From: an uncultured delta proteobacterium
GTDB lineage: Bacteria; Desulfobacterota; Binatia; UBA9968
Direction: 5' to 3'
NCBI GenBank assembly: GCA_963804165.1
Contig: CAWDPO010000001.1
Span: 125,381-189,380 of the forward strand
DNA length: 64,000 nt
The notes under the pieces are model-generated. The model was not told the origin of the DNA. It did no database searches and was given only the letters and a program-made list of their open reading frames with translations. The position numbers were made by a program, and so were the translations under genes. Below, piece by piece: positions 5,582 to 29,693 of this stretch; positions within the stretch are counted from its first letter, which is position 1; each line of letters starts with the position of its first letter.

Positions 5582-8199
5582 CTAGTCTGACTGCTCCCCG
5601 TTCAGGCAACTCTCGATTGTTTTCGACGCGAATGATTTCGTCGTGCGCGACGTGTAGACCAATTCGTCGAAGAGTCGCTTGGGAAACCAGCCACGACGAC
5701 GGATGTAAATCTCTTCAACTGCGCGAACGCCTGGAACAGCTTGAATCGCAGCTTCCAGGCGTGCTCGTTCCAACGGAGTCGCCGAACGTCCAGTTGTCTG
5801 GAGAAAAGAAACCAGGACGTGGTCTAACACCACGTTGACCGAACAACGCTTCAAGCACAGCTTCCTTCACATCGCCAATGTACGAAGTCGGAGCAACGCA
5901 GATATGAATCTCCAGATCCAGATTCGCGAACTTGGGATTCAGTCCATAAGTCTCGCGTCCCGCAAGTCTGTAGCGATTGAGTTGACGTTCGAGGTCGATG
6001 CGTTGTTCTTCTGTTAACGTGAAGCTGCCTTTTGGATCTGGAGTCGCGAAGAGCGTGAGCCAACTTCCAGTCCAACGGAACTGCGCGCCAGCACGTTGTA
6101 CCCATCTGAGTTTCTCGACGGCAGCTGCGTAGTCTTCGGCGCGCACCGCGCGAAACGTCTCAGCGCGAAACGCGTCTGGTGCGACATGTCGAACGTCAGC
6201 AAAGGATTCGGGATCTACCGCATTCGCAAGACCAAACTGGAGATCATCAGCCGCAAATTCATTGTCAGTAATGCCGAGTGGATTTGTGACCGCGATAACG
6301 AAGGTGAGCGGCGCCGCGGGATCGAATTCAGTGAGCGAGTTTGCGCCGACGTTGTCACCTCGACCTCTGCCAAGTCGATAAACAGTGCGAAACTGCATCC
6401 CTCGTGTTGGTTGTTCTCCAAACAGATCGTTACCAAACTGAACACTCGCACCACGGCCGTTGGCATAATCGAAATGCACAAACTCCTGGACCGTATCGGT
6501 TTCATCGACACGGCGATAAGAAGAAACACGTCGCCACGAACCATCGTCGATCGTGAAGTGTTTGTCGGTAGGCAGAGAGGAACTAACACCCAACATCGCT
6601 CGTTTCCACTCCCACTCGCTGTCGGTCACCCAGTTCCCGAGCACACGTGTTCCATCCATAACCCGCACTTCAGGAGACGCATGTTCAAGCGTAGGACCGT
6701 GCGACACCACATCACGTTCTTCCGATCCGGGAAGCGTGAAAAGTAGAGCGGAACGTTCAACTGCGAACGCAGAAAAGTTCTCGTTGTACAAAGTGTTCGT
6801 GGTTGGCAAGTGTGCCGGCTGCAAAGGCGGCAGCAATGCGGCCTGCGGATTTGGTTCGATCTCGAAAAAGGCTTCGAGCGTTTCTCCCGCCGTTGCCGGA
6901 ACGATGTTGCCGCGAACGACTAGTGTTGGCAGCTCCATTTCGAACGGCAGCGCGTATGCAGGATCCCATTCCAGTCGTGTGAGGTTCGTGCCGGTGAGTG
7001 GATCCACCAACGTCGCGCCGGCATCGTCGACTTTGATCAAACGAACCAACCAGGTTCGTACCGGCACACTTGCATCGACTGGATTGGTTTTTAGTATTAC
7101 CCATTTCCCACGAACTTGCGGATTGGTGAAATCATCGAGCGGAAGATCGTTTTGGTGATGACCTGTGACATGTAAAAAAGTAGAGCCGACTAACAGGCAG
7201 GTATCGTTTTCATCCCACTGATACGCCGTAAGTTCGTTTGCGGCATTGCGTAGCTCAAAATCCGACGTTGGATAGAGGTTGCTCTGCGAAGGCAACACGC
7301 CGAGCGGCGGCGTTAGTCCCTTGTGACCTTGAACAATTCCATGTCCTACTTCATACACTGATGGACTTCGGTGACGTCGATCTGCAAGCGTCTCTCCCGG
7401 TACAGCAGCTGGCGGCGGTACCCATACTGGCGTGCCTGCAGAGACAATGTGCACAGCCGCCGAAGCATCAACCGTGAAATCAAGCCACGTCGCAGCACCC
7501 TTGCCGTCGTGGACGTGGTAATCAAGCAATCGCGCCTGACGACGAATCGATCGGCGCTGTGTTGCGGATTCAAAATAGCGCTTCGCGCGAAATGCGATCC
7601 TGGTAATAGGCAAACTCGTCGCCGACAGCGCTCATTAACTCGGTGAGCATCATGCCGACATCAGCTTCAAGCCGATCTTTCCATTGCGGATGCCAGTCCG
7701 AAGCGAAATCCAGCAGCGCCTGCCGAATACTCCAGAAGTCGCGGGCCAGATAGTTCACCGGGTAGTCGATCAACGTATCTTCAGGACACTCGTGAGGCCG
7801 CGCTTCACAATCAAGCTCGCTCGGACAATTCGCCTTGAAACTGAACCCGACTCTACTGAAATACGGATCGACCAATGGACTGGTGAGCTGAAATTCATAA
7901 CGTGAGAAGTCGCCGGGCTGTGAGGTAATCACGCGTAAAACTCGCCTGCCAAAACGTGTGACCCACGTCGGAGGAAAATTCGGATTGAGCGGCACAACCG
8001 GCAATGACTCCCCGCCACTTGGACTGATAATCTTGATCTGAGAAGGCTGGACCACACCAAGGATCTGTTCAGCATTCAACGTCGCGTTCGGATGAAATAA
8101 CACAAACAACGTCGTCTGGTTTTCGCGGACAAAGATAAAGTCGATGCCCACGATGTCGTCGCGCCCGCGAAGATTCTCGATGCGATCGATTGCAGCCAT
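5582..8199 (-). CDS. eCIS baseplate J-like protein 1 (Afp11-like; frameshifts near 7590 and 5760)
   Basis: VNYLARDFWSIRQALLD...EADVGMMLTELMSAVGDEFAYYQDRI, ATQRRSIRRQARLLDY, VQFGNDLFG and RAVRAEDY motifs. Confidence 0.85.
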
Positions 8200-8201
8200 G
8201 A

Positions 8202-8579
8202 TTAACGAGTCACTTCCAAATTCAGATAACGGCGTTCGCCACGTGCTTTGAGCGTGTAGGCAATCTTGATTTCCAGTCGTTCATCGATCGCCAGAGCCTT
8301 TACATCGTTAACGTCAATTGCTGAGCCCAGCCAATTGGTGAGTGCTTGATAAATCGTTACCTGAGCCAACGACGCCGATACTTCACTGTTAGGGGCAAAC
8401 ACCAGTCGCTTTATCCCGCAGCCGAAATCCGGTCGATTGACTCGCTCGCCGGGCGCTGTGAAAAGAACCTGGAACATCATCTGCTCGATGTGCTCAGCGT
8501 AGTTCTCTTCTTCGGCTAAACGTCCGCGGCCGAGATCAACCGCGAAAGGATGTCGTATGCTGGTGAATGGTTCGGCCAT
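8202..8579 (-). CDS. gp25/GPW-like baseplate protein (Afp9-like)
   Basis: HIEQMMFQVLFTAPGERVNRPDFGCGIKRLVFAPN is the GPW_gp25 signature. Confidence 0.92.
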   Translation of the reverse strand: MAEPFTSIRHPFAVDLGRGRLAEEENYAEHIEQMMFQVLFTAPGERVNRPDFGCGIKRLVFAPNSEVSASLAQVTIYQALTNWLGSAIDVNDVKALAIDERLEIKIAYTLKARGERRYLNLEVTR

Positions 8580-8581
8580 CG

Positions 8582-8926
8582 CTATAGGCTCTTCACTTTC
8601 GGTTGCGTGTTTACCTTCATCACGAGTCCCTGGGGTAACTGTTGCGCGTTCTGGCAAAGACCGATGCTGCTCATGCTCAGAGTTGGCGTGCTATTAACTT
8701 TCGCGCGCATATCAGTCAGGATCCAACGAACGGTCAAACATGGGCTGGGAATCGTGGTGACGCCCGCAGGAATCTGAAAAGGGCATCCGGAGATCAAATA
8801 CTGATCATTCGCCAATGCTCCGAATGCGCCACCAACCTTCACCCGACTGTTCGTGGTAATGATCTGGACCGATCCTCCGTGCGGACACATCAGAGTTGAA
8901 CTCACGTTGAGAGTGTTTCCAGCCAC
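8582..8926 (-). CDS. PAAR-like (DUF4280-type) spike tip protein
   Basis: MCPHGG...GCPF...PSPC...GLC Cys/His pattern. Sits between the gp5-like spike and gp25. Confidence 0.8.
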   Translation of the reverse strand: MAGNTLNVSSTLMCPHGGSVQIITTNSRVKVGGAFGALANDQYLISGCPFQIPAGVTTIPSPCLTVRWILTDMRAKVNSTPTLSMSSIGLCQNAQQLPQGLVMKVNTQPKVKSL

Positions 8927-8929
8927 TGC

Positions 8930-9487
8930 TTATGTAACCTCCCATGCGCCGTTGTTAACCTTCACAGTCGCCGCAGTGACTTCGACTTTTCCAGCTGACA
9001 ATTCACTGACGACACCTTTCGAGCTGATAGTATGTTTAGCGTTGCCCTTTTGACTCTTGATGTCTTTCGCGAGCGTCACTGTCGATTTGCTGGTTGTCGC
9101 GAGTTTCATTTCGTCGTTCTGATCGTCGATTCGCAGCGTCAACTTTTCCGTTTTCCAAATCTTGATCGGAGCGCCGCCCGGGTCTGGTAATTCGTTATCA
9201 GCCCAGAAACATCCACTCCAGATTGGATAACTGGGATCGCCAGCTTCGAATTCGACCCAAACACCCGTTCCGTTTTCCGGGAGACTGTAGAAGCCGACTT
9301 TCTTGCCTGCGTAAGGAACACAAGGCATGGCCCACGACTCGACGGTGCCGAGAACCGCGGGCACGCTGACTTTCAAACGCCCGCGATTAGTCGGATCGGC
9401 GTTGTCAGTTACGGTGCCGCGATACTTTCCGAAAAAGTGACCGCGGATCCACATGTAACATTGTTGAGTTAGGTCATCGCCATACAT
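8930..9487 (-). CDS. Phage baseplate assembly protein V / gp5 OB-fold spike (VgrG C-part)
   Basis: FFGKYRGTVTDNADPTNRGRLKVSVP...WAMPCVPYAG...GVWVEFEAGDPSYPIWSGCFW, followed by a short beta-repeat tail. Confidence 0.92.
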   Translation of the reverse strand: MYGDDLTQQCYMWIRGHFFGKYRGTVTDNADPTNRGRLKVSVPAVLGTVESWAMPCVPYAGKKVGFYSLPENGTGVWVEFEAGDPSYPIWSGCFWADNELPDPGGAPIKIWKTEKLTLRIDDQNDEMKLATTSKSTVTLAKDIKSQKGNAKHTISSKGVVSELSAGKVEVTAATVKVNNGAWEVT

Positions 9488-9491
9488 AACG

Positions 9492-10556
9492 TTACTCCGC
9501 CCATCCGTTGCGGATTAGATCGAATTCCATGAAGTGTTCTGCTGAGTCGATCGAATGTCGCACTGCTGAACAAAACCAGGTGCCACTGTGGCGAGTACCG
9601 ACGCCACGAAGATTCACAAGAGTGTGTGATCGCAAAACTTTCTTAAGGGCACTGAAAGTCGTCGTACCGGTCGCGCGCAAAAAGAAACCTGCATCGATGA
9701 GTGTTCCCTCGTTGCGCGCTTGCAGATCTCCGTTGTCGTCAACCGGCGCGTAAACATGGGCAACGCGAGAGCCGGCGGCGATCGTGGAAAGATCAGTGCC
9801 ACCGAGAGCTGTCAACGGCGACCGTTGAACTGATCCGCTAAGGTTCGACTTCGTGTTTAAGTCGACCTCCGTTGAATTCGTCGACGTCGCCCTCTCCACG
9901 TCAAAAGTGATATCGAGGTCAGTAACGTTGAACTTCGGATCGGTGAGATTGATGATCAAATCGCATTCTGGCTCGCCATCGAACTTGGGACGTTTAAAGT
10001 GCGCGGTCTCAATCCCAAACTCGTCGCAGGTGACCCAGAAATGAAATCCGTTGCGGCGCGCGAGACGCCGTATGAAACTCAAGTCTGTCTCGCGTTGAAC
10101 CAATGTGTGTTTCATCTCCATGTGTCCCGCCTGCGTTGTTTCAACATCGGGAAGAAGGCCCGCTTCCGAGAGAATCGAGGAGACGGCAGCGCTATCCGTT
10201 AGATTGCTCCACGCAACTGCCTTGTCTTCACGGTCGAGCTTGATTAGCGAATCCGCGCCCTGCACCGACAGAGTGGAACCGGAACCGCCCTGTTTGAATT
10301 GAATCTGTTGACCGTAAACAGGGCCTTTCACAAGACAGGCTGTGGTCGCGTCCGTTGGCACAAGCACCGAGATCTCAGAACCTGGACCAACACTCGCGTC
10401 CTTCAGCAACGGAAAGTCGCCGTCAGCTATGTCGAAGCTGTATTCAAGGCGATACTGCGTTGGTTCACCGACGCATTCAGTGACCTCAACGAACGCAGCA
10501 CTCGCCGCTGTTTCGTTCGGCGCTCCGTTCACTCTGATCGCTACTCCGAGTCCCAT
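9492..10556 (-). CDS. Phage late control D / gp27-like hub (VgrG N-part, Afp8-like)
   Basis: LVQRETDLSFIRRLARRNGF and VNLRGVGTRHSGTWFCSAVRHSI motifs. Confidence 0.88.
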   Translation of the reverse strand: MGLGVAIRVNGAPNETAASAAFVEVTECVGEPTQYRLEYSFDIADGDFPLLKDASVGPGSEISVLVPTDATTACLVKGPVYGQQIQFKQGGSGSTLSVQGADSLIKLDREDKAVAWSNLTDSAAVSSILSEAGLLPDVETTQAGHMEMKHTLVQRETDLSFIRRLARRNGFHFWVTCDEFGIETAHFKRPKFDGEPECDLIINLTDPKFNVTDLDITFDVERATSTNSTEVDLNTKSNLSGSVQRSPLTALGGTDLSTIAAGSRVAHVYAPVDDNGDLQARNEGTLIDAGFFLRATGTTTFSALKKVLRSHTLVNLRGVGTRHSGTWFCSAVRHSIDSAEHFMEFDLIRNGWAE

Positions 10557-10560
10557 TTGC

Positions 10561-10836
10561 TTACTTTCCCTTTACTGGAATCTCTACTTCTCGCGCTTCC
10601 GTTAATGCTTCAGGCAACATCACATCGTTCTGTTCAGCGATGCGCCAGAAGCCAGCGGGATCATTCGTATACTTGGCAGACAACAGATCCATCCGTTCAC
10701 CTTGCTTTAACAAATGAATTCCGAGCAGTACTTGATCTGGTGGTGGTGGCGGTGCAACTACAGTCACTAATCGACCGCGCTTGTCGGTCACCACGTAGGT
10801 TTCCGCTTTTAGATATCTACTCTTTGGATCGAACAT
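10561..10836 (-). CDS. LysM-like eCIS protein
   Basis: MFDPKSRY...HLLKQGERMDLLSAKYTNDPAGFWRIAEQN. Confidence 0.8.
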   Translation of the reverse strand: MFDPKSRYLKAETYVVTDKRGRLVTVVAPPPPPDQVLLGIHLLKQGERMDLLSAKYTNDPAGFWRIAEQNDVMLPEALTEAREVEIPVKGK

Positions 10837-10847
10837 AGATCTGTCCC

Positions 10848-11624
10848 CTATGTCGGCAGCATTCCGATTATCGATTCGACACTGTTTGCGAGATTGGCAG
10901 TTGCTAATGCTTCTTTTTGTGCTTGCGTGAATTTGTAACAGAGCTTCGCGAAGTCAACGATCAGCGACTGTCCAGGATCACCGGCCACATTCACGAGGTG
11001 GTTCTCATTGAGCACCGTTAGGCCAAGTGATACCTTCGCTCGTATCGGATAGAGCAATGGTGAATACTGCTGTTCTTCAACTGAGAAGCTCGTGATGCGG
11101 ACAGGAACGATGCGACCAGGCCCCCAGAAGAAAAGCACGACCGGTACTTGCAGCTTCGGCACGACATCAGCCGCAGTTCCGAGACCACCGATGCTGACGC
11201 CGCCCGTAAGCGAAACACTTACAGATACGTTGAGCAATCCGGCTAGCGCACTTGGTCCAGGCGGATAACAAAGCATCTCCATCGCTGAGATACGATCAGC
11301 AACACCGGCGATGGTCGCGATCGGATGCGTACTCGGCTCTTCCAAAGCGTCGGCGGCATCCAATTCGAGAGTAAGACTGAATGTTTCCTGCGGATCGAAT
11401 GGCTGGGCCAACTCGTTAAGAAACTCCGCTGCAGCTTTGTCTGCCGCTTCCTTGCTCTCGTAAGTGATCTTTTCCTTCGGCTTCCACGGGACAACCTGGC
11501 GCGTCATCGTTTCAGGGTTGTACTGAAAGATGATGATGTTCGGGATGGGCACCAGCATCGGCGCTGAGAATTGAATCAGCGCGCCTTTGAGAAGTTTTGG
11601 ACTTCTTGTGAATCCGTTCGCCAT
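10848..11624 (-). CDS. CIS tube-initiator protein (Afp7-like N-terminal domain)
   Basis: PKLLKGAL...IIFQYNPETMTR...VLFFWGPGRIVPVRITSFSVEEQQYSPLLYPIRAKVSLGL. Confidence 0.85.
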   Translation of the reverse strand: MANGFTRSPKLLKGALIQFSAPMLVPIPNIIIFQYNPETMTRQVVPWKPKEKITYESKEAADKAAAEFLNELAQPFDPQETFSLTLELDAADALEEPSTHPIATIAGVADRISAMEMLCYPPGPSALAGLLNVSVSVSLTGGVSIGGLGTAADVVPKLQVPVVLFFWGPGRIVPVRITSFSVEEQQYSPLLYPIRAKVSLGLTVLNENHLVNVAGDPGQSLIVDFAKLCYKFTQAQKEALATANLANSVESIIGMLPT

Positions 11625-11627
11625 GAA

Positions 11628-14600
11628 TTAGACCTTTTCGAAGTTCCAACCAAGTTCCAGCATGCCCGTGCGGTTATGTTCTTTAGCCTTCGCCGGGACC
11701 TTGTCGAGCAGTTCCTTGAAGTCGGCTTCATCTTTCGTAATCACATCCGGCTTCGTTTCGTCTGCAAGTTTGTATTGCGTTGTCTTTGCTATCTCTTTGT
11801 AGAACTCAAGTTCGAGCGTAGGCATCCGAGCTTTGAGCGCATCACTCATGCGGCGCTCAACCTCTTTGTAAGTTTTCTGCGCAGCTTGATAGGTCTCACT
11901 TGCGACGGTGTCGTCGCCGTGCTGCTTCCGATAATCTTTGAATGATTGTTCAGTCGAGACGAGCTCGGGAGGTACGTGTCGCTCGAATTCGTTATTCACC
12001 GCACCTGCCTGCGACGAACCTGAGGTGCCGCCAACGTCATCAGCCTCCGGCGTGATGTGCAAGCGTCCACTGCGGTGCGTCGATGCCGCGAGCGAAATTG
12101 TCGGCATCATCTTCCCACGAGTGGATGACGGGCCTTTGGTTTCGCCAACGAGGATTGCTTCCTTTTTGTCAGTCGCGTTCGGTTTTTCACTAATGTACTT
12201 AACCTCGTTGCCTTCCCACGTCAGCCCTGGATGGTTCCAGCTCTTCTTAAACGGCCGATGTGAGTTTGTAGGGGCAGATGAGAAGTAGTCGGCTATCAGA
12301 TATTGTGTGAGGTGATGCGACTCACGTCCCGGGCTCTTTTGGCTGTCGTCGTGTCCGTATTGGGCTAAGCGAAGTCCAACGTTCGGCTTCACGTCCTTGT
12401 TTGTCTCGGCGTAAATCTTCCAATGAGGCAGATCCTTTGGATCAAGTGTCGAGCCAGTGAGGGCATTCTTTACAAGCTCATCGACCTCTTTCTTGAAGAG
12501 GTAACTGAACATAAAGTCTTTCCCGAACAGAGCCCAGATGCCAACGACGATCCCTTTCTTCTCAAACAGCGCGCGGGTATGGATGCGAATCTTGGTGAGC
12601 TTGTCGTCATCCGCCCCGGGCCAAGCGTTCTTGACTGAGTCGATCCAAAGTGGCGAGCGACCGTCAATGTAGGGAAGGTAAATATTCAGGATCTTTATTT
12701 CTTTGAGCGGTTTTGTCTCATCGATGATCTCGACTTCCGTGCTGTCTGGGGCCGTTACCTTGGTGTGATTGAAGGAAAGGGAAAGCACAACACCTGTTTT
12801 TGCGATGATGTAGCCTTCGAGTGACCTCGCAAAGTGAGTTGGCTTGATGACCTGTTCGACGGCAGGAGTAGATTTCGCTTTCGTTCCCTTTGCCGGTTTC
12901 GGCACTGGAAGATCCATCAGCGATTCGAGCCCAATCTGAGAGGCAGCGATTCGAATAGGATCAGCGTAGATGTTGTTGTTGAGACGGCTGTGTATCAGCT
13001 TGACTGCCGCCGTAAAAACGTCGGGATATTTAAGGATTGTGGTGTGCGATTGTAGGTTGGTGAGAACTTCAACCGTCTTGTCTACCGTGTTTGCTTCGCG
13101 TGTTTTTAGTTTCGCTTTCTTCTTCGTATCGAGGAGTTCTTGCCGACGTTTAATGTCGGGCAGATCCGTAATCGTGTGTAAGAGTTTATGGATAGTGAAT
13201 AAGTTAATTCCTGAAGGTTGGAGACCTCCGTCCTCCTCGTTACCAACATCGGGTTGGGTGGCCAGCCGTCCTCCTGACTCAGCGATCTGATCCGCTATTC
13301 GTTCGCTAGCAGGATCGTATTTCAGTCCCATTTCTGGTTGGCCGGAAATAGGAGCAGTGTCGTTTGCCCTGCGACGCTTACCGGTTTGTTGCAGCACGTG
13401 GACCAACTCGTGCTGAAACACTTTCGCGCCACGACCGCTATAAACCGAAAGGCCGGGTCGCATGAAGACATGACTGCCCGTGGTTAGAGCATCGGCGCCA
13501 AATGTGTCTGTCATTGCAGCCGACTCAGATCCCGTGTGGAGTCGAACGTGTTTTAACGAACGACGAAACACAGATTCCGCACGTTGTAGTACTTCAGGAG
13601 TGAGTGGCTGACCTGGGCCATGCGAAGGAACATGTCTCGGTCGGAAGCGCAGAGGTCGATCTCAGTGAGGGGTAGGGATTCGTGGTAGCCGCTGCGACGG
13701 GAACATCTTCAACGTAGTCTTCGTGCGTTTCCGGGAAGGGATCGCCTTCAGGAGTGATTGCGAGCTTGTTTGCTTTTGGGATCGGCTTGAACACCCCTCC
13801 GAGAGCCTTAGCTCCGAGCAAATCGTTTATCTTCTTTACGACGTCATCGCGCGTCTCATTGAACTTAGTGGCAATCTCAGGAACGACCTGTTCTTGCCAG
13901 TAGATGTTTGGATCCACTCCTGCCGCTACGATCTCCTCTGCAACACGCTCGTTGAAGAAGTCGAGTGCGCCTGTCTTTTGCAGAATAAACAGAGCGGCCT
14001 TACCTTTGAGTCCCAGGTTCTTCAAGATAAAGCCTTCAAGAACACTCATAGCGCTCGCAATTATCGGTGGAAAATCGAGAATCTTTTCTGGCAGCTGGAA
14101 TTCTTCGACTTGCCTCAGGATGTCGTGGAAACGATCACCAAAGCTCTCCTGCTGCTCCTTCAGTGTGTCCTTCAGTTCTTGAGCAACACCCTTTTTTCTG
14201 TCTTCCTTTGTGCCGATCTCGTAGATGGTTGTCGCGATCTTGGCTATGGTGAATATGTTGTCGGCAATAAACTGGAGTGCAAACGAGAGGACCGGCCGCG
14301 ATGCTGCGAAAGTGTGAAAGTCCTCCATCGGTACCTGGACTTTGTCGTGAAGTTTTCGCAGGGCTTTAGCGAACGCCTTACCCAAACGACGAAACGCGGC
14401 TACTGCTTTTTTCGCTTTTGCGAACTTGTCTGTACCGCCTGAACTCGGTTTCGGATCGGCAGTTTCACCCTTTCCTATCGTACTTTTGGCGAGCAGCGAG
14501 TCGAGACGCGGGTCACCAAATAGCAGCAGTTGTATGAGGTTCTCCGGATCCGCGGCGTCTTTTATTCGCGTTAACAGGCCTTCCATGATCTCGCGAATTC

Positions 14601-17600
14601 CACCCGCAAGAATCTCCTTGACCTTCTTCCAATCACCGTCTGCCCAAAACATAGCGATCGTCGCGAGGACACGCGCTGCGGCGATTCCCTGGCCCACACC
14701 GGGAATAAACTCCGCCAGATCAAGCATCGTGTTGACGTACCACTCGATGCCGGCTTGTATGTTTCCCATTGCGCTGCCAAAAGCAGCCCACGCAAGTCCG
14801 TTGTGTATGTCAGCGAGGATCTCCGCATCTGCTGGGCCAACTTGCTTGGCTTCAAGGAGCACGTTTTTCTTGTTAAAGACTCGAACTTCCAGAAGTTTCT
14901 CGTCTTTCGCCAGAACGAGAGGTGTCTTATCGTCAAGCTCGAGGAATTTAGCCTCGGCGTACCCAGTTGCCGCAGTCTTCGTCTTCTTTTTCTTCGATCC
15001 TTTTCCCTCCGGCGCCTGGCCAGCGGTGCCATAGCCGTAAGCTGGATGGTAGATGTAGTCGCGGAGGATCTTTGTGACCTCGTAGTGAACGCTCTTTGGC
15101 TCACCGAGTATTGATTGACCTTCGCGTGGGTAAAGCTTTTGGCCCACTGGAATCCCACTGCTGTAGGCCATGAACACTTTGAATCCCTGATCCTTCGCAA
15201 AGGCTTTGTACCCAGACTTCTTTTGTACACTCTCGCGAACAGCCTTGAAGTGACTGGTGACCGCCTTTAAAGAAGCAACTCGAGGATCGAGCCACTCACT
15301 CTTGTTTTCATAGTCAGGCAAGAAAACATGACGGGCCTTTGGGTCCATTGCCAGGAACGTCGGCAGGTACTTCACGGCTGATTCCATCCATCCGAGCCAT
15401 GAATGCACGACATCGAACCGGCTCTCATTTTCGAACGCCGCTTCGAGCTTTGGCGCGATCTCCAGCATCAACGCAGTCATCTCGGCTTCGACGTCCTGCT
15501 CTTCCAACATCGACACTGCCACAAAGAAGCGAACAACCTGCTCCAACGCCTTATTCGGCTCGTCGAAGGCTCGCGTATCGTCGTATTTTATGAGGTGTTC
15601 GATACTCCACTTGGCAATAATCTGACGATCAAGACGTGAGCCTTTCTTGATCTGAAGGAGTAACTGCTCCCATGCCCGCTCGCGCTCGCCCTCCAGAGCA
15701 GACGTGATGCCGGCTTGAAGAGTTCGAAGTTCGTCCTTCGTCATCTTCTCGTCTTTGAGCTGCTTGGTTATGCGTTCGCTCAGTTTCTTGAGCCACGTGG
15801 GGTCGTCTAATTGTTTTGTTTGCTCGAGCTTCTTTTGGTCGTCTTTGCCTGGCATGCCGGCAGCAACTTGGGCGTTGAGGAGATCGATCCCGCGAAACGT
15901 GGGCATCACGGTCCAGATGTAGGGGACGAACCACGCAAAGACCTTTCCAGGTTCAAATGGCAGTATCCATGTCAAGCTGGCGGTCTTGCTGTGTTCGTCA
16001 ACCTCGTGGAAGGAATAGTGGGACTTAATGAGATCATCAAACGATTCTTTGCTTCCCTCCTTGATCGCAAAGTCATACGACTTAACTGTCCAAAACTCTG
16101 GAAATGGCAGTTTCTTAACTTCTTTATCAGCTTTGCCGGCGACGAAAGGTATTAATCCGCCAGCCTCAACCCACAGCTTCTCTTCCGCATCGCTTGTTGG
16201 CGTTAACTCTTTGATTTTCCCGGCGACCGCCTCGTAGTAGGATTTGCGATACAGAAGCGCCAGGTGTGTTCCAGTTAACGGTTCCCACGACTTGATGGAT
16301 TGCACTTGCGAAAGGTCTTCAATTGGCACTTCTGGCTTGTGATGCCAGAAGTTGCCATCCTCATATGGCAGTATCGCAAGAAGGCTCGTTTTCTCTTTCT
16401 TGGCGAAGATTATTGTGTCTGCTTCTTCAACAACCTCGGTCCAATCAAGCGCTCTCCCAAGCCATTTCGCTCGACGTGCAAAAATTAGCCGTTGATGTAT
16501 ACGCTGATCGACTAGCGCGACGTTGGGATTAGTGTCCGGGCCTGCCGCGACCCAGGCAAGGAAGCTCATCCACTCACGCACCCAGATCGTCAACCAGATA
16601 TAAGCGATTACGTCGTCTGTTTTTTGCTCATAGAGAAGTTTCGGTTGCGGTTTCTCGAGGTGCTCCTGAGAAAAACTCTTCAGTCGCTCTACTAAAGCTT
16701 CAGCTCGAGCACGAAACTCATCCGTAGGGGCGGGGCTTTCTTTTCCTTTACCGGGCCGGTTCAACTCGCGTAAGACATGAATTATCTCGGCGGGAAACCC
16801 GCTCTTTTCACCGGCTGCCTTTACTGCTTTTAACTTCTTGGTGGCTTCGGCGAGAGCTTTTGCTTCACCCTTGTCTCGACTTTCGTGGAATTGAGTGAAC
16901 GTCTGATCAAGCGCGCTCTGTCGATCCCAAAGATCAATCGCAGTGGTGCCAATTCCTTTGACACGCGCTCCCAGTTTCTTTAAGAGTGGCTCCCACGCTT
17001 TTCTTGCATCGGTGTCAATTGCGCCAGTGGTGTCTTTAAAAATGTCCGCAGTTGATTCAAGAAACTTGGAGCCCCACTGCTGAACCCCATCAGCGTAGCG
17101 ACGCTTCAAAAAGATCTGTCGCTCATTGGTTTTTTTCTGCTCCGCGATCGCATTGTTATTTATCTCAATGCATTTCTTCATACGGAGCTCATCAAGTTCT
17201 CGTATTCTGAACAGCGCCTCGTAAACCCATTCGGAGCTTGACAGTTTTTTGTTTTCACCCAAGTTATCTGACAACTCGGAGGCGTGCTCGGTAATGGTAT
17301 CGGTGCTGGTGTCTCCCTCTTTCAAACCGTAACGACGAAGTGTCGGAATGGGCGCGCTTAGTGGGCCAAGAATGAAGACACCAATCAGTCGAACCCATTC
17401 TTCGATGTACCACGCAAGCACCGGATGTTTTTCAGCAGCCTTAACGAATACCTCCTCACCTTTATTTCGATCCTTGAGAACCGGAACAAAACTATTGGTC
17501 CACGCAGCCGTACGGATGCGAATGCCGCCTTTAAAGTCGTCGCGTTCGATAAGCTGCGATGCGAGTTCGAATTTTTCGTAGCGTTTTAGTGTGTCGAAGA

Positions 17601-18333
17601 GGAGACTCTCCGCTTCAGAGGGCCAATCCTTGATTTCTGGAAGTGATTCCTGGAAAAACGTATCTAGCGATGCCTTCGGATCGGTCATCGCAACTCGTTT
17701 AGCCAACGCCTTAACGACTTCGTCATACTTATCCTTTTGATCTTTCTTCTTCGGAGCGTGTAGTTTCTTCAAAGTGTCAAACGGAGGAATCGCAGCTTCC
17801 AATTGCACGAGTCGATTGCCACGTTGCGGCGTTGCTTTCATCATGCCGTCTGTCGACAGGCGTCCAGTCTGTTGCAACACGTGTGTTAGCTCGTGGGCGA
17901 TCAGCAGTTTCCCTTCACGACTCTGAGGCTTGAACTTTCCTCTCGCGAAGTAAACATCTCGGCCGCTGGCGAAAGCGTTGGCGCAATGCTCTTGGGCCGC
18001 ATGAGCCGCATCAGAATCTTCGTGAATCCGAACGGCGGCGAAATTTGCACCGAACGATTCTTCGAGTTCCTCTCGCAAATCTTTATAGAGCGGAAGGCCA
18101 GCGCTCGCAGGTAACGAAAAATCCGCTGCTCCAGTGGGTGTTATTCGTCGCGCCAGTCCTTTCTCACCAGCAACGAAGCGTTCGGCAATATCGTCGGCCT
18201 GACGTTCGAGACCGTCTGCGCGCTTCCGATTCGCTGCTCCGGCTAGCCCCGGTTTCGCCTTCATTTGCACACGACCATGGCCCAGCTGCTTGGGCGAAGA
18301 CCGAGTTGCTGTTTTGAATTCCGTCGTGTTCAT
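11628..18333 (-). CDS. Giant eCIS cargo/core protein with two DUF4157 domains and candidate C-terminal nuclease (one frameshift near 13660)
   Basis: The 1579-aa ORF starts with DUF4157 (FAAVRIHED...AHELTHVLQQ). The 647-aa ORF has a second DUF4157 (KHVRLHT...QHELVHVLQQ), and its frame extends upstream as GPGQPLTPEVLQRAESVF, overlapping the end of the first ORF. The two therefore probably form one gene of about 2230 aa. Confidence 0.75.
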
Positions 18334-18341
18334 CGAATGAG

Positions 18342-18572
18342 TTAATTCACCCTGCGTCGAATGTGCGCTGTCACGTCACTTGCTAACCGATCGATTGAGC
18401 TAGTGGTCGATCGAAACTTGATCGAGATTTCGTTAATGGACTTAGTACCGTTCGTCTCGCTCGAAGCTTCACTCAAGCGCTTCGCTACGAGTTCACCCAA
18501 CCGGCGACCTTGCTCGCACGTCAGACCAGAAGCGCAGATTCGAAACTCCCGAATGTGAACCTTGCCTCTCAC
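18342..18572 (-). CDS. Small eCIS-associated hypothetical protein
   Basis: 76-aa ORF overlapping the ATPase stop (GTGA). VHIREFRI...LAS.V...I pattern seen in small eCIS genes. Confidence 0.65.
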   Translation of the reverse strand: MRGKVHIREFRICASGLTCEQGRRLGELVAKRLSEASSETNGTKSINEISIKFRSTTSSIDRLASDVTAHIRRRVN

Positions 18573-20776
18573 GCAGCAGCCTCTTCTAATCGCAGAATCT
18601 TGTCGCGTTCGCGTGGTCCAATCGCTCGTCCTTCTTTCGCGAGCTCCCGATCAAGCCCGATGAGCAAATGACCAGCATTTAGTGATTTGCGCTCAGCTCG
18701 TGCCGCGAACAAGGCTGCCAGCACGGCAAACTTGATTTGCGCGCCCGTGACGTCGGTCGCGGTGCTGAGAAGTTCAATGGCCTCGGCCAACGACTTCGCC
18801 CGTTTTTCGTCCACCAACCCCGTAATGAGTTTTGTCCACAGTTTGCGTTGCAGTGCTGCGTCAGGTGGCGTGAGCTCCACGTGGTAACGAATGCGCCGCA
18901 GAAACGCTGAGTCGATGTTGGATTTGAGGTTGGTGGCGAGTACCGCGATTCCGGGATAACTCTCGATCGCCTGCAACAGAAATGCGGTGTCCGTATTCGC
19001 GAAGCGATCCTGAGCATCGCGGATCTCAGCCGATCTTCGCGCAAACAGCGCATCCGCTTCATCGAAGAAAAGCACAGCGTCGTTCTCAGCGGCCACGCGA
19101 ATCACTTGTTCGGTGTTCTTTGCCGTCTCACCTACCCACTTGCTGACTAACTGCGCGACGTTAACGCGACACAAATCCTTCGTCAGTTGGGCGGCGATCA
19201 CCTGCGACGCCATCGTCTTGCCAGTGCCTGATGGTCCACTAAATAGCGCCACTAAACCACGGCCTTGCGGAAACAATCGTTGTGCTTCCTCGTGCTGCCA
19301 AAACGAAACACGTTCTTCTGCTTCGAACGCGATTGCCTGGAGCACCCTCTTTACTCCGTCAGGCAATACCAGGTCGTCCCAGGTAAACGGACATTCGAGA
19401 ATCTGTGCGAGATTTCCAAACCGCAATCTCGCACTCTCGCGCACGCGCGCCGCGGCTTCATCAGGGGTCTGCGCGCCAAGATGGATCGCGCGCTTAATGT
19501 CTCCCGGCCAAACGCTGTGGTGTTCGGCAAGTTTGCGAACTTGTTCGGCCGGCCATTTCGCCGCCTTAGGTGACGACTCCCGCCACAAACGTTCGCGCGT
19601 GCTTGCTTTCGGAATCGAAAGACGCACAACCTTGTCGACTATGCCACTTGTCTCGGTCGGTTCAGACCCGGGTTCGCACAAGACAAACTGAAGGGGAAAC
19701 ATCGATTGATTGGCAGGCCACAGTTGCCGTGTTGCTGCATCACCTTTCCAGCCGAGGACCGTCGCATCAAGAAAAGCCTGTCGTTGCGCGTGCAGAAACA
19801 TTCGCTTCCAATTCGACTCGTCGGTTGAATCCAACTGGACCACGAGCAGTGGCATTCCTAACTCAGCCGAAACAGCCGCAGCAAACTGTCGTTTTCCGCC
19901 GCCGCTCGGAGCGACGACAACGACACGCATGCGAATACGTGCTTCGCTGGCAAGCGACTGCTTGATCCAGTTCAGAACTTCTTCAAAAGGCCACTCGGGC
20001 AACGTCGCGTTTTGCGATTCACCGATCGCAGCTACGCCGATCAGTAACTCATCGAGACTACTGCTGCCTTCCAACCACTCCTTGATGTGCGGATCGCAAA
20101 CGAGGGCTAACGGTTCACCGACGCCCGTATCGCGCCGTTGAATCAATTCCCAGCGAAACACATTCATTTCTGGTGACCAGTTCACTTCACCGTTCAGTCG
20201 TAGCAGTCGCGCGGCGAGATCTTCCGTCAGATACGTCCTGCCTGAGTGGTCCTGCAGATATGCGCACACACGACTTAGTGAACTGTCCATAGCGACGGCT
20301 GCTGCAAGCTTCAGCAAGTCGAGTTCTGCCGGAGACAAACCAAGCACGCGGGCAATGCGCGCGAAGCGAGAGTTCTCCAATTCATCTAACTCGCGTTTGA
20401 TTGCGTCTGCTTCCGACAGCCAATGACGAACGGGTTCCTGACTCTGCGCCCACTCCGTTTCAGCTTCGAGCGAATCCTGATTAGCAAGAATGGCGGCGAG
20501 CTCAGCGTGAGTGACCGTTGCGCGACCATCGATCGATCCGTCGTTAATCCAGAGATGTTGCAACCACGCTCCCCGACAACGCGCAAGCAAGCGGAACCAC
20601 GCAAGCAACAATTCGCGTTCTCTCGCCGACGATTCGACCGGCGCAGTTTGATATTCGATTGGCTGCGACCCCGGTTTGCGCCTTCGCTTCGTTGACGCGC
20701 GCGTCGCTTTCGTCCCTTTCGCCCCTTTCTGGCGCGACGATGCTTTTCTCTTTTTTACTGCTCGTTTAGCCATCAT
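18569..20776 (-). CDS. eCIS AAA+ ATPase (Afp15/Pvc15-like)
   Basis: Walker A GPSGTGKT, LVSKWVGETAKN, Walker B LFFDEADALF, DRFAN, ATNLKSNIDSAFLRR. Also a degenerate first AAA module. Confidence 0.93.
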   Translation of the reverse strand: MMAKRAVKKRKASSRQKGAKGTKATRASTKRRRKPGSQPIEYQTAPVESSARERELLLAWFRLLARCRGAWLQHLWINDGSIDGRATVTHAELAAILANQDSLEAETEWAQSQEPVRHWLSEADAIKRELDELENSRFARIARVLGLSPAELDLLKLAAAVAMDSSLSRVCAYLQDHSGRTYLTEDLAARLLRLNGEVNWSPEMNVFRWELIQRRDTGVGEPLALVCDPHIKEWLEGSSSLDELLIGVAAIGESQNATLPEWPFEEVLNWIKQSLASEARIRMRVVVVAPSGGGKRQFAAAVSAELGMPLLVVQLDSTDESNWKRMFLHAQRQAFLDATVLGWKGDAATRQLWPANQSMFPLQFVLCEPGSEPTETSGIVDKVVRLSIPKASTRERLWRESSPKAAKWPAEQVRKLAEHHSVWPGDIKRAIHLGAQTPDEAAARVRESARLRFGNLAQILECPFTWDDLVLPDGVKRVLQAIAFEAEERVSFWQHEEAQRLFPQGRGLVALFSGPSGTGKTMASQVIAAQLTKDLCRVNVAQLVSKWVGETAKNTEQVIRVAAENDAVLFFDEADALFARRSAEIRDAQDRFANTDTAFLLQAIESYPGIAVLATNLKSNIDSAFLRRIRYHVELTPPDAALQRKLWTKLITGLVDEKRAKSLAEAIELLSTATDVTGAQIKFAVLAALFAARAERKSLNAGHLLIGLDRELAKEGRAIGPRERDKILRLEEAAA

Positions 20777-22089
20777 GGCACTTGCACCCAGCGCGGCGAG
20801 TTCTCAGCGCCGTTCACAATCACGCGCAACGGCAACGTCGATCCGCTGTTCAGGCCGACAATCGGAAACTGAATTCGAATTTGCGTCGCGCTCGTAATTT
20901 CGAAATGGCCCGCCGTTAAGGCGAGTGTCGGTTCGATAGGCACAGGCTCGCCACCAACGATCACGCGAACGTTCTCTGGTCGAACGTCAGCGTGTTGGAA
21001 CACAGCACCGTCCACCGTCACGATGTTGCCGACTGCTGTCGCAACAGTGTTGTAGGGAGGATTTGTAATCTGTGGCGCTACAACGAAGGGGACTTCGTTA
21101 GAAGCCTGCGGGAATGCGCGCATGCTACCGTCAGGCATTTGGCGAACCTGAGTGACGCGCGCGGCGGCAGTATAGAAGCCTGGAGCAATGTCTTCTGCGC
21201 CTGCGCGCTGATTGACCTGCGCCAGAATGAAATCGGTTCCTGCAACTACACCCCAGTCAAGACCAACCTCTTGCGGCGTATTCCAATCAGGTCTTTTGAT
21301 TAGGAGTGTTGTCGAGTCGCCTGCGAGATCGGTGCCCTCGAATGCAATGTTTTCACCGATCGCTGCTTCGCCTGGTCTAACATCCACAGTTCGATCAGCA
21401 ACTTCACCTGGTATGCGAAAAGTAACTGTGGCGCGGCTGGTATCTAGACGAGGCGCGCCATTAACAAAAATCTGGATACCGTAGCGAAGCACGCGTCCGC
21501 TAAGTAACTGGGGACGATCAGGTTCGAGGAGCGTTGCTGTGACTTCGTAATAGGCGGCGAGTCGAACAGCCTGTGTGCCAGCTGTCCAAAAGTTAGAAGC
21601 TTCGTTAGGAGCAATGTTTCGCTTAGAGATGCGAAAGACATTGTCTGTGTCTTGCAGTTCGGTAGGAAAGATCAAACCGCCGAACGACGTGTTTCGATCG
21701 AGACTGGGAAAATCGTGCAACGTCTTCAGCGCGAGACCGAACAGCCGTTGCGCTCGAAGCGCGGCAGCATGAGGGTTGTTCATTAGCTCGGCAGCAAGGA
21801 CGAACAGCTGATACTGAAGAATGACACCCATGGGCGTGAAGCGAACCGGCGGCTGATCTCTGTACACAGGCGGAAGGTTTTTAACGTGCGGATCTTCGTG
21901 TGCGTAGTAGAGAAACATTCCCAGCGCCTGGTCCGCAGTAAAGGTTGTAGACGGCGAAACCCCGGTGTAGGTAATCGCCGGCGCCGGGTTTGGCGCGAAG
22001 AATGCGGCCCAAAGAGGATCGACCCGCACCCGTAAGAGGTTCAGGAGTGTCGTCGTCACCAGTGATAAGTCGATTAACGGCATTGTCAA
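20773..22089 (-). CDS. DUF4255/Pvc16-like sheath terminator with C-terminal IPT/TIG-like domains
   Basis: LSLVTTTLLNLL...LGMFLY...EDPHVKN...ALKTLHDFP...AAYYEVT, followed by beta-rich Ig-like C-terminus ending LRVIVNGAEN. Confidence 0.85.
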   Translation of the reverse strand: MTMPLIDLSLVTTTLLNLLRVRVDPLWAAFFAPNPAPAITYTGVSPSTTFTADQALGMFLYYAHEDPHVKNLPPVYRDQPPVRFTPMGVILQYQLFVLAAELMNNPHAAALRAQRLFGLALKTLHDFPSLDRNTSFGGLIFPTELQDTDNVFRISKRNIAPNEASNFWTAGTQAVRLAAYYEVTATLLEPDRPQLLSGRVLRYGIQIFVNGAPRLDTSRATVTFRIPGEVADRTVDVRPGEAAIGENIAFEGTDLAGDSTTLLIKRPDWNTPQEVGLDWGVVAGTDFILAQVNQRAGAEDIAPGFYTAAARVTQVRQMPDGSMRAFPQASNEVPFVVAPQITNPPYNTVATAVGNIVTVDGAVFQHADVRPENVRVIVGGEPVPIEPTLALTAGHFEITSATQIRIQFPIVGLNSGSTLPLRVIVNGAENSPRWVQVP

Positions 22090-22949
22090 AAGCGACTGAA
22101 TCCGAAGCGGTGGGCCGACGGAACTCCAGCGCGTGTTCTTCTGCCACCGCCGATCACGACGACTTGACGTTGCGGCGTAACCACTGGTGTTGGCGCCGGC
22201 ACGATTTCAACAGACAGTTTTCCGATCACTAGCGACGGTGCTTCGTCGGTGGGTTCAGAAACTCGCGCCTGCGGAGTTGGAGGTTGCAACCGCGTGGCAG
22301 TTTGAATCGGCCTTTCTGATTTAGTCGCATGCTGTTGACTATGGTCTTCCTCACTTTCCGCTTGTTCGCGCTTGCTCGAGCGACGTTCAAACAAGCTGGC
22401 GATGAACGAATCAGCCTTTCGCAGGAGGACTGCTTGCTCGCTCTCGATGTTCACTAAACGGTCGGTCATTTCGTCATCGTGCGATGACTGCGACACTTCT
22501 GTTTCCTTTGAGGGAGTAGTTGGAACAAGACGCGGAGACGTGTGCGCTTCTGGTGATATCTGCTGCGGTTCGACGTGCGTAACCTTGCGAGTCTCGAAAA
22601 GGTCGCGCGGTGGAAGCTCAGATTCCTTGGTAGCTCGAGTTATCGGTTGCTCTGGTTCAGTCGAAGGTGGCGCAACGATGGTCGAGCTCTTGGGAGTTGG
22701 TGTGACAGTCGACTCGGTCTGAGGTCTTAGCTCGGTAGTTTTTGACGACGATTCTGAAACAGCGTTGCGTTCAGCCGGTAGTCGATCAGACGACGGGCTA
22801 GTGGGCCAGACAGTGGAATGATGCGTCGTGTCGGGCGAGGTGACAGTCGCCTCGAATGGATCGTGAGCCCTGCGAGCGTTGACGGATTTGGGTGCCGGTG
22901 CGTTTGCGAGTGTGGCGCGAGCGGCCAATTTTGCGAAATAGCTTTTCAT
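22086..22949 (-). CDS. Low-complexity Ser/Pro/Thr-rich eCIS protein
   Basis: MKSYFAKLAARA start, disordered middle and LVIGKLSVEIVP C-terminal motif. Overlaps the DUF4255 gene start. Confidence 0.7.
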   Translation of the reverse strand: MKSYFAKLAARATLANAPAPKSVNARRAHDPFEATVTSPDTTHHSTVWPTSPSSDRLPAERNAVSESSSKTTELRPQTESTVTPTPKSSTIVAPPSTEPEQPITRATKESELPPRDLFETRKVTHVEPQQISPEAHTSPRLVPTTPSKETEVSQSSHDDEMTDRLVNIESEQAVLLRKADSFIASLFERRSSKREQAESEEDHSQQHATKSERPIQTATRLQPPTPQARVSEPTDEAPSLVIGKLSVEIVPAPTPVVTPQRQVVVIGGGRRTRAGVPSAHRFGFSRF

Positions 22950-22964
22950 CAGAAAAGATGCGCA

Positions 22965-23747
22965 TTACGCGACGTATTCGTTTTCAATGAGTTCAACCAG
23001 GTGTCGTCGATCACTGCGTGTCAGCGAAAGAATTTCATCGAGGGACCATGAGTAAGCTGCGGCGATACAGTTAATATCGCCCAGTAGACGACGGCGTTCA
23101 GCGACGAGTGCTCCTAACAAGTAGGTTTGAATATCGAACTGGACCTTGTGAACGTGATTACACTCCGGACAGCGCGCTAACAATTCGAGATCGATTAGCG
23201 GCGCAACAAGTTCAAGCAGTTCCTCAAAGGCCACGGCACCTTCGGGCCACCCACGATCTTCGGTGCAGCGATTCAGCAGCAGTGATTCGACTTCCTGCGG
23301 CGTTGCGCCGATTGCAGCTAACTCGTCTCCTCCCGTCGGTAGACGAAAGCTGACACCATTCGCCGCTCTAAAACTTCCGTCGTCCAACTGCACACACTCG
23401 ACTGTTTCGTCCGCATTGCTGATCGAAGAGATCGCGCTCTGCAGTGAGAAATCGATATCGAAAGGTTGCTCGCATTTTGCACAGGTAAGTGTGCTCTCGA
23501 TGCGATCACCGAACGCAGTTCTGTAAACGGCAGCAAGCAGTCGATCGCGATCCGCAGCAACCAGATCTGCAGCGCGCAGCTTGTCTGTTCCGGTGGCCGG
23601 GTCTGGTTCCAGGAGCGAAGCCAGCAGCGCGATTGCGTTGGCGGTACTGGTCCCCATGACCGCGTATTCGTCTCGACCCGTAAGTTCTCGCAGCTGCGCG
23701 GTCCGTCGGGTCCCGGCGAAACGTAATGAAATGCTCTCGGCCATCAT
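22965..23747 (-). CDS. T4 gp26-like baseplate hub assembly protein
   Basis: DRDRLL...FGDRIESTLTCAKC...FRLPTG.D...CPEC...LAAAYSWSLDEILSL: two CxxC motifs, located downstream of the tube gene. Confidence 0.75.
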   Translation of the reverse strand: MMAESISLRFAGTRRTAQLRELTGRDEYAVMGTSTANAIALLASLLEPDPATGTDKLRAADLVAADRDRLLAAVYRTAFGDRIESTLTCAKCEQPFDIDFSLQSAISSISNADETVECVQLDDGSFRAANGVSFRLPTGGDELAAIGATPQEVESLLLNRCTEDRGWPEGAVAFEELLELVAPLIDLELLARCPECNHVHKVQFDIQTYLLGALVAERRRLLGDINCIAAAYSWSLDEILSLTRSDRRHLVELIENEYVA

Positions 23748-23773
23748 GGACGCATACCTGGTCCGCAAAAGAA

Positions 23774-29490: not shown

Positions 29491-29693
29491 CGCTGAGTCT
29501 CGACCTCTCGGAATCAAGTTCCTTGTGGCAACCTACCACGAACAATTCGAACAATTCCGAACAAACGTTTTAAAAGGCCGTGCAATCCCTACAAACACGA
29601 CAAGCGGTTTCACGACTCCGATCGGTGAAACGCCAGGCGGTCAGTTTGAATGCAAAAACAAAGACCGAGCTTAAATTATTTGACTGCAAAAAA

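Follow-up and report, generated by a model that had tools for sequence, protein, structure and literature searches.

A two-DUF4157 giant gene of an extracellular contractile injection system, interrupted by one probable assembly error

We analyzed a 64,000-nucleotide stretch of DNA from an uncultured delta proteobacterium (contig CAWDPO010000001.1; hereafter the window), which holds a gene cluster for an extracellular contractile injection system (eCIS). Positions 11628-18333 of the window constitute one gene, encoding a protein of approximately 2234 residues (~250 kDa) with two DUF4157 domains and an Ntox14 region. This giant protein is probably a conserved, non-exchangeable component of one eCIS lineage, and the break that divides its gene in the assembly is likely an artefact. 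By analogy with characterized systems, we read it as a lumen-loaded, two-module cargo resembling Tme of Streptomyces davawensis.

Results

A single gene interrupted by one base

In the list of open reading frames (ORFs), the region is represented by ORF1 (13594-18333, minus strand, 1579 codons, ATG start) and by a second minus-strand frame that stays open over 13661-11628 (677 codons, stop to stop) and whose earliest ATG, GTG or TTG is a GTG at 13571. When the two frames are aligned with homologous proteins, ORF1 matches until ...NPYPSL and the second frame matches from DRPLRFRP on; they join as ...NPYPSL/DRPLRF... if one base near 13662-13663 is dropped, giving a read-through product of 1557 + 677 = 2234 residues. 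The junction DNA reads TCACTGAGATCG in the window and TCACT-AGATCG in L013, a 17.5-kb metagenome contig with 78% DNA identity across the locus, where the giant gene is an uninterrupted ORF of 2237 codons that does not contain the extra base. We aligned positions 6440-23900 of the window to L013 and listed every gap. Across the 15.9 kb aligned, gaps within genes are multiples of three or are compensated within a few bases, with two uncompensated exceptions, each of which is one additional base in the window (13663 in the giant gene and 7579 in the baseplate J gene). All 131 full-length relatives, as well as L013, carry the giant gene in one frame. The 677-codon frame is 78-83% identical to its two closest homologues and ORF1 is 80% identical to its closest one. 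The Pfam match of the second DUF4157 domain begins 12 codons before the GTG, so the start of this domain precedes any usable start codon. A sequence-only reading of this DNA had proposed that a single frameshift joins the two ORFs into a protein of about 2230 residues, and that the second domain starts before its annotated start; the homologue alignment and the intact L013 ORF bear out the first proposal, the read-through length agrees with the predicted size, and the position of the Pfam match confirms the early domain start.

Both frames match PF13699 (eCIS_core, formerly DUF4157), at residues 81-157 of ORF1 (91.8 bits) and residues 19-95 of the 677-codon frame (64.9 bits; the cut-off is 22), and both copies have an HExxH motif (HELTH in ORF1, residue 147; HELVH in the second frame, residue 84). 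The two HExxH-bearing domains of the sequence-only reading are thus real, and they are indeed far apart, although the distance between their motifs on the read-through is about 1494 residues and not about 1400. Closer to the C-terminus, the second frame matches PF15522 (Ntox14) with 52.3 bits (cut-off 25), which is a partial match covering profile positions 112-216 of 218. At the C-terminus Pfam matches Ntox14 and no nuclease family, and a sequence-profile search of the PDB likewise revealed no EndA-like nuclease domain. Kyte-Doolittle averages over 19 residues peak at 1.5-1.9 near residues 1195-1230, 1345-1365 and 1417-1440 across five family members, while ORF1 itself passes the hydropathy threshold at 314-332 and 1418-1436 only. 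The motif DLAEFIPGVGQGIAAA, which had been placed at about 14690-14725 ahead of the second domain, is present at slightly different coordinates (Table 1), lying about 340 residues before the second DUF4157 domain and about 790 before the Ntox14 region.

A family with a fixed architecture

To define the family we searched 1.84 billion cluster representatives with the middle region of ORF1 (residues 382-1579), which contains neither DUF4157 nor Ntox14, and obtained 197 clusters at E <= 0.001 and 140 at E <= 1e-10. Pfam finds two PF13699 stretches plus Ntox14 in 21 of 21 full-length matches sampled from the top to the bottom of this list. With profiles built from the family alignment, both DUF4157 domains are recovered in all 115 matches of at least 2000 residues and the Ntox14 region in 113 of them; a local profile of the N-terminal segment matched 74 of the 115. 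The lengths of these relatives range from 2041 to 2520 residues (median 2217), with 99 falling between 2100 and 2299. When the matches of a further search are included there are 131 full-length members, 128 of which have two DUF4157 domains, and in every one of the 128 the HExxH motif is kept in both copies, which fits a catalytic role; the spacing between the motifs is 1369-1712 residues (median 1480). In the Ntox14 region an R, an H-H pair, a Q, an R-G pair, a P and two further H are at least 90% conserved family-wide. A word-indexed search with ORF1 residues 160-1579 returned 10 proteins of 2184-2244 residues, all with PF13699 and PF15522. The alignments span both ORFs from end to end at 27-80% identity, and the domain order is the same throughout. 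Since 21 of 21 sampled members and 113 of 115 long ones keep Ntox14, the architecture of the two-DUF4157 plus Ntox14 family is, judged from these sequences, invariant, and its C-terminus is not exchanged.

These results bear directly on an earlier proposal that the protein is a polymorphic cargo, that is, a toxin in which an unvarying N-terminal part and a PT-TG-like pre-toxin segment are combined with a C-terminal toxin that can be exchanged. Such a design would be in keeping with DUF4157 proteins at large, which are described as having variable C-termini (Zhang et al. 2012, PMC3482391), and distant giant DUF4157 proteins do carry other C-terminal families (PF13930, PF14410 and PF07591, for example), but those giants match the present family through DUF4157 only. 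Homologues with swapped C-termini, which the sequence-only reading had suggested looking for, do not occur in the middle-region family. Nor is the supposed pre-toxin segment supported: ORF1 has no PT-TG match in Pfam (E <= 0.01), the strict motif F[IVL]PGxG is present in only 50 of the 131 relatives, and the motif does not stand in front of a toxin domain. No immunity-type gene follows the giant gene in any of three loci, namely the window, L013 and L026, a metagenome-assembled genome (MAG) of Candidatus Flexifilum affinis, which belongs to another phylum. A search for a stand-alone second module yielded five proteins (372-1185 residues) with similarity to the part following the second DUF4157 domain, all of them on contigs of 1.7-4.7 kb and hence fragments. 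For this family the polymorphic-toxin account is contradicted, and we regard it as very unlikely.

The named members of the family come from Novosphingobium, Hoeflea, Myxococcales MAGs, an Actinomycetes MAG, a Pyrinomonadaceae MAG, an Acidobacteria MAG fragment and Candidatus Flexifilum, so that named relatives and loci together span five groups (Acidobacteria/Pyrinomonadaceae, Alphaproteobacteria, Myxococcales, Actinomycetes and a Chloroflexota MAG). A scan of a genome collection, performed with patterns derived from DUF4157, confirmed L026 as its sole locus, and the taxonomic spread therefore rests on a small number of named proteins. A search of 400 other genomes sampled from the window's phylum did not find the conserved helical region in any of them. 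Searches with ORF1 or the second ORF (ORF2) as query in relatives and in the genus (41 and 31 overlapping genomes, including the window's own) found elsewhere only DUF4157 matches, which belong to smaller tandem DUF4157 genes. The distribution of the family is patchy. Within its own genome the giant gene holds the only two PF13699 matches, there being no other DUF4157 gene, and no Streptomyces proteins were among the relatives found.

Giant proteins outside the family likewise contain more than one DUF4157 domain, two or three of them at intervals of 400-2000 residues. Among them, P0175-P0181 are unrelated giants with two or three copies, those of P0175 being located at 266, 1694 and 3167. Because such giants exist outside the family, chains of several DUF4157-headed modules appear to be a wider pattern, which suggests that repeated DUF4157-headed modules are a general design.

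The eCIS locus

Pfam matches of the neighboring genes confirm that the gene is inside an eCIS core, as had been noted from the sequence (Table 1). The gene order is the same in the window, L013 and L026: cap, ATPase, giant, tube-like protein, small ORF, GPD-like hub, OB spike, PAAR-like protein, gp25 and J. This synteny was established by Pfam for the window and L026, and from ORF sizes and protein matches to the window for L013. The giant gene is the largest ORF of the cluster and is positioned directly upstream of the tube-initiator and hub genes, the tube-like gene beginning 3-12 bases after it in the three loci.

Table 1. Features of the giant gene and of the surrounding eCIS cluster, with positions in the window
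Feature	Position	Strand	Remarks
262-aa protein just upstream of sheath	26701..27489	-	weak coiled-coil matches (SMC, golgin); too short for a conventional tape measure
Sheath	24307..26637	-	
Tube	23774..24280	-	
gp48/54-like protein	22965..23768	-	
287-aa unassigned ORF	22086..22949	-	
Pvc16_N cap protein	20773..22089	-	Pfam
AAA+ ATPase (Afp15/Pvc15-like)	18569..20776	-	Pfam; immediately upstream of the giant gene
ORF1	13594..18333	-	first 1557 residues belong to the giant protein, followed by 22 out-of-frame residues and a stop
N-terminal 80 residues	18094..18333	-	Ala/Gly/Arg/Lys/Thr-rich; candidate disordered loading signal, disorder judged from composition only
DUF4157/eCIS_core domain 1, HELTH	17863..18093	-	PF13699, ORF1 residues 81-157
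Middle module, residues 158-1190	14764..17862	-	382-1190 modelled as folded, mostly helical with some beta
Best-conserved family region, residues 1191-1540	13714..14763	-	long helices, lower pLDDT, moderate hydrophobicity (representative search, hydropathy, consensus)
DLAEFIPGVGQGIAAA, conserved P-G-x-G-Q turn between two helices	14674..14721	-	ORF1 residues 1205-1220; low-confidence loop in the model
Extra-base site splitting the gene	13662..13663	-	CTG A GAT in the window, CTA GAT in L013
Second frame, C-terminal part of giant protein	11628..13661	-	677 codons, stop to stop
DUF4157/eCIS_core domain 2, HELVH	13377..13607	-	PF13699; zincin-like fold in the model (VIA-align)
Alpha/beta region between DUF4157 domain 2 and Ntox14	12363..13166	-	frame residues 166-433; from the model, no fold assigned
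Ntox14 region	12051..12362	-	PF15522, frame residues 434-537; conserved R-x-S-H-H-x-T-Q ... R-G-x-x-M-P ... T-H ... H
C-terminal tail	11631..12050	-	frame residues 538-677; helical from about residue 550 (model)
CIS_tube-like protein, tube-initiator position	10848..11624	-	weak Pfam match; starts 3 bases past the stop codon of the giant gene
91-aa ORF	10561..10836	-	
GPD-like hub	9492..10556	-	
OB-fold spike	8930..9487	-	
PAAR-like ORF	8582..8926	-	
gp25	8202..8657	-	
Baseplate-J-like gene	5715..8199	-	one extra base at ~7579 separates frames of 209 aa and 632 aa; single ORF in L013

The VgrG-like spike is divided over two genes, one for a GPD-like hub (about 354 aa) and one for an OB-fold protein (about 185 aa), in the window (8930-10556), in L013 (13361-14988) and in L026 (14014-15680). 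Since the reading frames of the two genes differ at each of the three loci, the division seems to be natural and no error.

Two sigma-54 enhancer-binding activators, one of which has a GAF domain, are encoded just upstream of the eCIS cluster (28108-29517, minus strand, and 30305-31888, plus strand) and are possible regulators of it. Further away, a nonribosomal peptide synthetase cluster occupies 32303-47431 on the minus strand, with condensation, AMP-binding, PP-binding and TubC_N docking domains; at least one of its adenylation domains is split between overlapping frames near 46400, and several of its ORFs overlap by 120-225 bases. A gene with a PglZ domain, as in BREX-type defence, is divided between two frames at 56710-58174 (minus strand), and near it an IS200-like transposase is fused to a DnaA C-terminal helix-turn-helix (54628-55575, minus strand).

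Origin of the extra base

The interruption is most likely an assembly indel, or at most a very recent mutation, and not biology; we hold it highly likely that the extra base at about 13663 is an assembly error in the strict sense. The reasons are that the relatives are uninterrupted, that baseplate J has a second +1 break, that at least three more Pfam domains are split in the window, and that alaS is fragmented in the same genome. The split domains are AMP-binding (profile positions 1-335 in 46388-47431 and 342-384 in 45490-46428), DHDPS (52-125 and 131-275 in two frames) and PglZ (1-59 and 48-174 in two frames). The alaS gene matches as three consecutive pieces in alternating frames, and its locus (G000:C13:105700-108700) contains at least four frames, none longer than 351 codons compared with the approximately 880 expected. 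As alaS is essential, it cannot be so broken in a living cell, which supports an artefact. Neither gyrA nor a full-length ileS was found in the genome assembly, which is 81% complete in only 46 contigs. The assembly is locally poor, and this bears on every broken gene called in it. Such breaks also recur in other assemblies: in L026 the orthologous giant gene (6363-12934) is in three overlapping frames and the first DUF4157 domain is itself cut, at profile position 52/58, in an eCIS gene order that is otherwise identical.

If the extra base were instead real, the gene would be a fresh pseudogene, or would have two products, one of 1579 residues that ends before the second module and one of 647 residues, initiated at the GTG at 13571, with a truncated DUF4157 domain. 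The break in baseplate J of the same locus is what a decaying eCIS would show. Moreover, six long housekeeping genes (rpoB, rpoC, dnaE, mfd, secA and one uvrA; about 20 kb) are intact in the genome, so that breaks may cluster in accessory or low-coverage DNA. The public read run decides neither way: it contains a 0.06 share of the sampled words, and the sole contig obtained from it spans 13000-13119, off the junction. The argument for an artefact is thus indirect. Against a real extra base, the essential alaS is fragmented in the same assembly and unrelated genes of the window are split too; the downstream frame, moreover, has stayed open over 677 codons, and its similarity to relatives equals that of the upstream part. 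A GTG start would cost the first 12 positions of the Pfam domain, and a gene in three pieces in another MAG points the same way. We consider a real extra base unlikely.

Programmed +1 ribosomal frameshifting at CUG-A-GAU, which would give products of 1579 and 2234 residues, is hardly conceivable. It is true that the 0-frame codon following CUG is AGA, a rare codon in many bacteria, and that dropping the base brings back the conserved sequence exactly. No relative has the site, however, the gene being in one frame in L013 and in all 131 full-length members, and this makes the mechanism improbable; by inspection of the sequence, the tRNA decoding CUG would fail to re-pair with UGA after a +1 shift, and an equivalent +1 break occurs in an unrelated gene 6 kb away. 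Indels in MAG assemblies readily break up giant eCIS genes, as here and in L026, and the resulting pieces should not be counted as separate cargo genes.

Predicted structure

An AlphaFold2 model of ORF1 residues 382-1579 (me5e55fb4bf88; 44 aligned sequences) has a mean predicted local distance difference test score (pLDDT) of 81.7. Its first 810 residues form helical domains with some beta structure, at block-mean pLDDT values of at least 83 and mostly above 90 apart from two short dips; after about 800 residues the model continues as long helices with pLDDT 40-78, which hold the conserved P-G-x-G-Q turn. The model of the second frame has a mean pLDDT of 73.6. In it, the second DUF4157 domain has a zincin-like fold: its best VIA-align match is the C-terminal metallopeptidase effector domain of VgrG2b, 6h56_B (Z 8.6, root-mean-square deviation 3.8, 115 residues, 17% identity), and other zincins follow at Z 5-6. 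VgrG2b is a spike-fused periplasmic toxin of a type VI secretion system, but is uninformative on the other 2000 residues. Residues 414-672 of the second frame give a weak Z of 6.6 to 9j9w_B. For the ORF1 model VIA-align returned helical-bundle rows only, at Z values up to 8.5, which is an uninformative range; they include the ClyA-type toxins MakA, YaxB and MakB (Z 7.5-7.8).

Other searches were negative. Foldseek, which the sequence-only reading had proposed as a check, found no match in the PDB at E <= 0.001 for either model. There was no BFVD match at E <= 0.001 (the weak rows have E >= 0.006 and TM of about 0.07, and several are tape measures), a sequence-profile search of the PDB with the whole-family alignment gave designed helical repeats only (E >= 0.05), and the ESM Atlas gave no usable match. 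The long helical middle had been called unassignable; this still applies insofar as no solved or viral fold matches it, but some 800 of its residues are folded confidently by AlphaFold2. In N- to C-terminal order, a low-complexity start and the first zincin lead into some 1030 residues of helical domains and some 350 of conserved long helices with moderate hydrophobicity; after a linker come the second zincin, the alpha/beta region, Ntox14 and the helical tail.

Discussion

The favored reading, that of a two-module cargo loaded into the tube lumen, implies a mechanism that we infer from the analogous AlgoCIS Cgo1/Cgo2 and Streptomyces davawensis Tme. In it, the adjacent AAA+ ATPase would recognize the N-terminal segment, and the protein would be threaded into the tube lumen beside the tube-initiator/spike complex that is encoded just downstream. 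Contraction would expel the giant protein together with the tube contents. The helical and hydrophobic module could then act on the target membrane and the His-rich Ntox14 module as an enzyme, while the two zincin domains may cut the chain into these modules, much as the sequence-only reading had suggested self-processing into two delivered parts. If this is correct, the place of small exchangeable toxins is taken in one eCIS lineage by a 250-kDa protein that is fixed and has two zincin domains, and the Pfam family Ntox14 is, in every relative examined, a constant part of a giant protein and not a free toxin cassette. It would also bear on the role of DUF4157, on how a narrow tube comes to be loaded with very large cargo, and on how a tube may be measured by a system that has no recognizable tape measure. 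Cultured carriers exist, strains of Novosphingobium and Hoeflea for example, which makes these questions testable.

Several observations weigh against this interpretation. The giant family is known from genes alone. The middle ~800 residues are predicted to form compact domains that would need unfolding to fit a tube lumen, and the hydrophobic segments are only moderate (1.5-1.9). The remainder of the second frame, Ntox14 included, has no convincing fold partner in Foldseek or VIA-align. PHROGs yielded nothing relevant, and no tape-measure match, for either ORF at E <= 1. A missing immunity gene is unusual for an antibacterial toxin. Finally, DUF4157 was reported to be dispensable for loading in AlgoCIS (PMC8894135; bioRxiv 10.64898/2026.05.27.728243).

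The protein could alternatively be mainly structural, a tape measure or tube-plug of this eCIS lineage in which the embedded zincin and Ntox14 domains serve penetration, in place of a cargo toxin. Its gene slot directly upstream of the tube-initiator and hub genes would suit such a role, as would its being the largest ORF of a cluster that has no other ORF long enough for a ruler (the unassigned ones are 262, 267 and 287 aa). Length is also tightly kept, with 99 of 115 relatives between 2100 and 2299 aa despite identities of 20-40%, and the architecture never varies. On the other hand, neither PHROGs nor BFVD matched it to a tape measure at the thresholds given above, and about 800 residues are modelled as compact domains and not as an extended helix. 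A helix rises by 0.15 nm per residue, so that 2200 helical residues would measure about 330 nm, and our impression is that described eCIS particles are shorter than this. Also in favor of a structural role, Tme has been argued to derive from tape measures (PMC11126660). We judge a mainly structural role to be unlikely. A ruler function is nevertheless conceivable, given that the architecture is fixed, that lengths are tightly distributed and that no tape measure is recognizable.

The two roles might also be combined, and we tentatively put forward, as an idea of fairly low probability, a bifunctional polyprotein acting as both ruler and payload in a distinct eCIS lineage without a separate tape measure. 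The conserved length of about 2200 residues would then set or fill the tube, and after ejection the zincins would cut the chain into a membrane-active translocator and a His-dependent Ntox14 enzyme module. That unrelated CIS lineages encode giants of about 2200 residues in this slot, Tme (described as 2247 aa) being an example, would on this premise reflect a common length constraint.

Parts of the picture developed here for the giant cargo have precedents in the literature. In the account of Zhang et al. (2012, PMC3482391), DUF4157 is named PVC-metallopeptidase and autoproteolytic release of toxins is proposed; Ntox14 is listed with the PVC export route and the PVC-metallopeptidase, and many such toxins are given as having no adjacent immunity genes. 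Whereas the C-termini of the toxins described there vary, the two-DUF4157 plus Ntox14 family is invariant, and where a second peptidase domain is described in that work it is at the extreme C-terminus, whereas here it is in mid-chain. Geller et al. (2021) treat DUF4157 as an eCIS core domain and note linkers of more than 1000 residues. In the parts of the literature mentioning DUF4157 that were available, no description of the two-DUF4157 plus Ntox14 family was found.

The association of DUF4157 with eCIS cargo, assumed in the sequence-only reading, is borne out by the experiments reported for AlgoCIS. There, Cgo1 and Cgo2 are cluster-encoded DUF4157 proteins that were shown to be lumen cargo, with an N-terminal domain, DUF4157 and a C-terminal domain; the disordered N-terminal domain is required for loading, and the toxicity of Cgo1 is reported to be independent of the motifs of DUF4157 (PMC8894135; bioRxiv 10.64898/2026.05.27.728243). 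Like these two proteins, the giant protein is encoded within a CIS cluster that includes an AAA+ ATPase, and it has a low-complexity N-terminus followed by DUF4157 and a C-terminal part. However, Cgo1 and Cgo2 are described as products of separate genes (498 and 1228 aa) with one DUF4157 domain each, whereas here two DUF4157-headed modules share one chain, and AlgoCIS is described with a separate tape measure, Alg14, whereas none is recognizable in the cluster of the window.

Tme (BN159_7576), from the CIS of Streptomyces davawensis, is described as a protein of 2247 aa that has DUF4157 at its N-terminus, contains hydrophobic helices and ends in an EndA-like nuclease; the baseplate genes follow directly downstream of its gene, and tip, spike and tube initiator are purified together with it (PMC11126660). 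In the same work, tme-like genes are defined by ORF length, N-terminal DUF4157 and synteny, and are found in several phyla (Nagakubo et al. 2024, PMC11126660). The giant protein resembles Tme in its size (~2234 and 2247 aa), its N-terminal DUF4157 domain, its hydrophobic and helical segments and an enzymatic domain (putative in the giant protein) near the C-terminus, and its gene is likewise the largest ORF of its cluster and directly upstream of tube-initiator, spike and baseplate genes, so that in size, N-terminal DUF4157 and position it is Tme-like. Tme-like effectors are further marked by predicted transmembrane helices and by remote homology to phage tape measures; on these points the giant family shows moderate hydropathy peaks, and the PHROG search at E <= 1 gave no tape-measure match. 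The two differ at the C-terminus, where Tme has a DNA/RNA nuclease of the EndA type and the giant protein has Ntox14 instead, and in that a second, internal DUF4157 domain is the rule in the giant family but is not mentioned for Tme in its description. Compared by description only, Tme is about 70% disordered, whereas about 800 residues of the giant protein are modelled as folded. On the published descriptions, the closest known proteins are Streptomyces davawensis Tme and AlgoCIS Cgo1/Cgo2.

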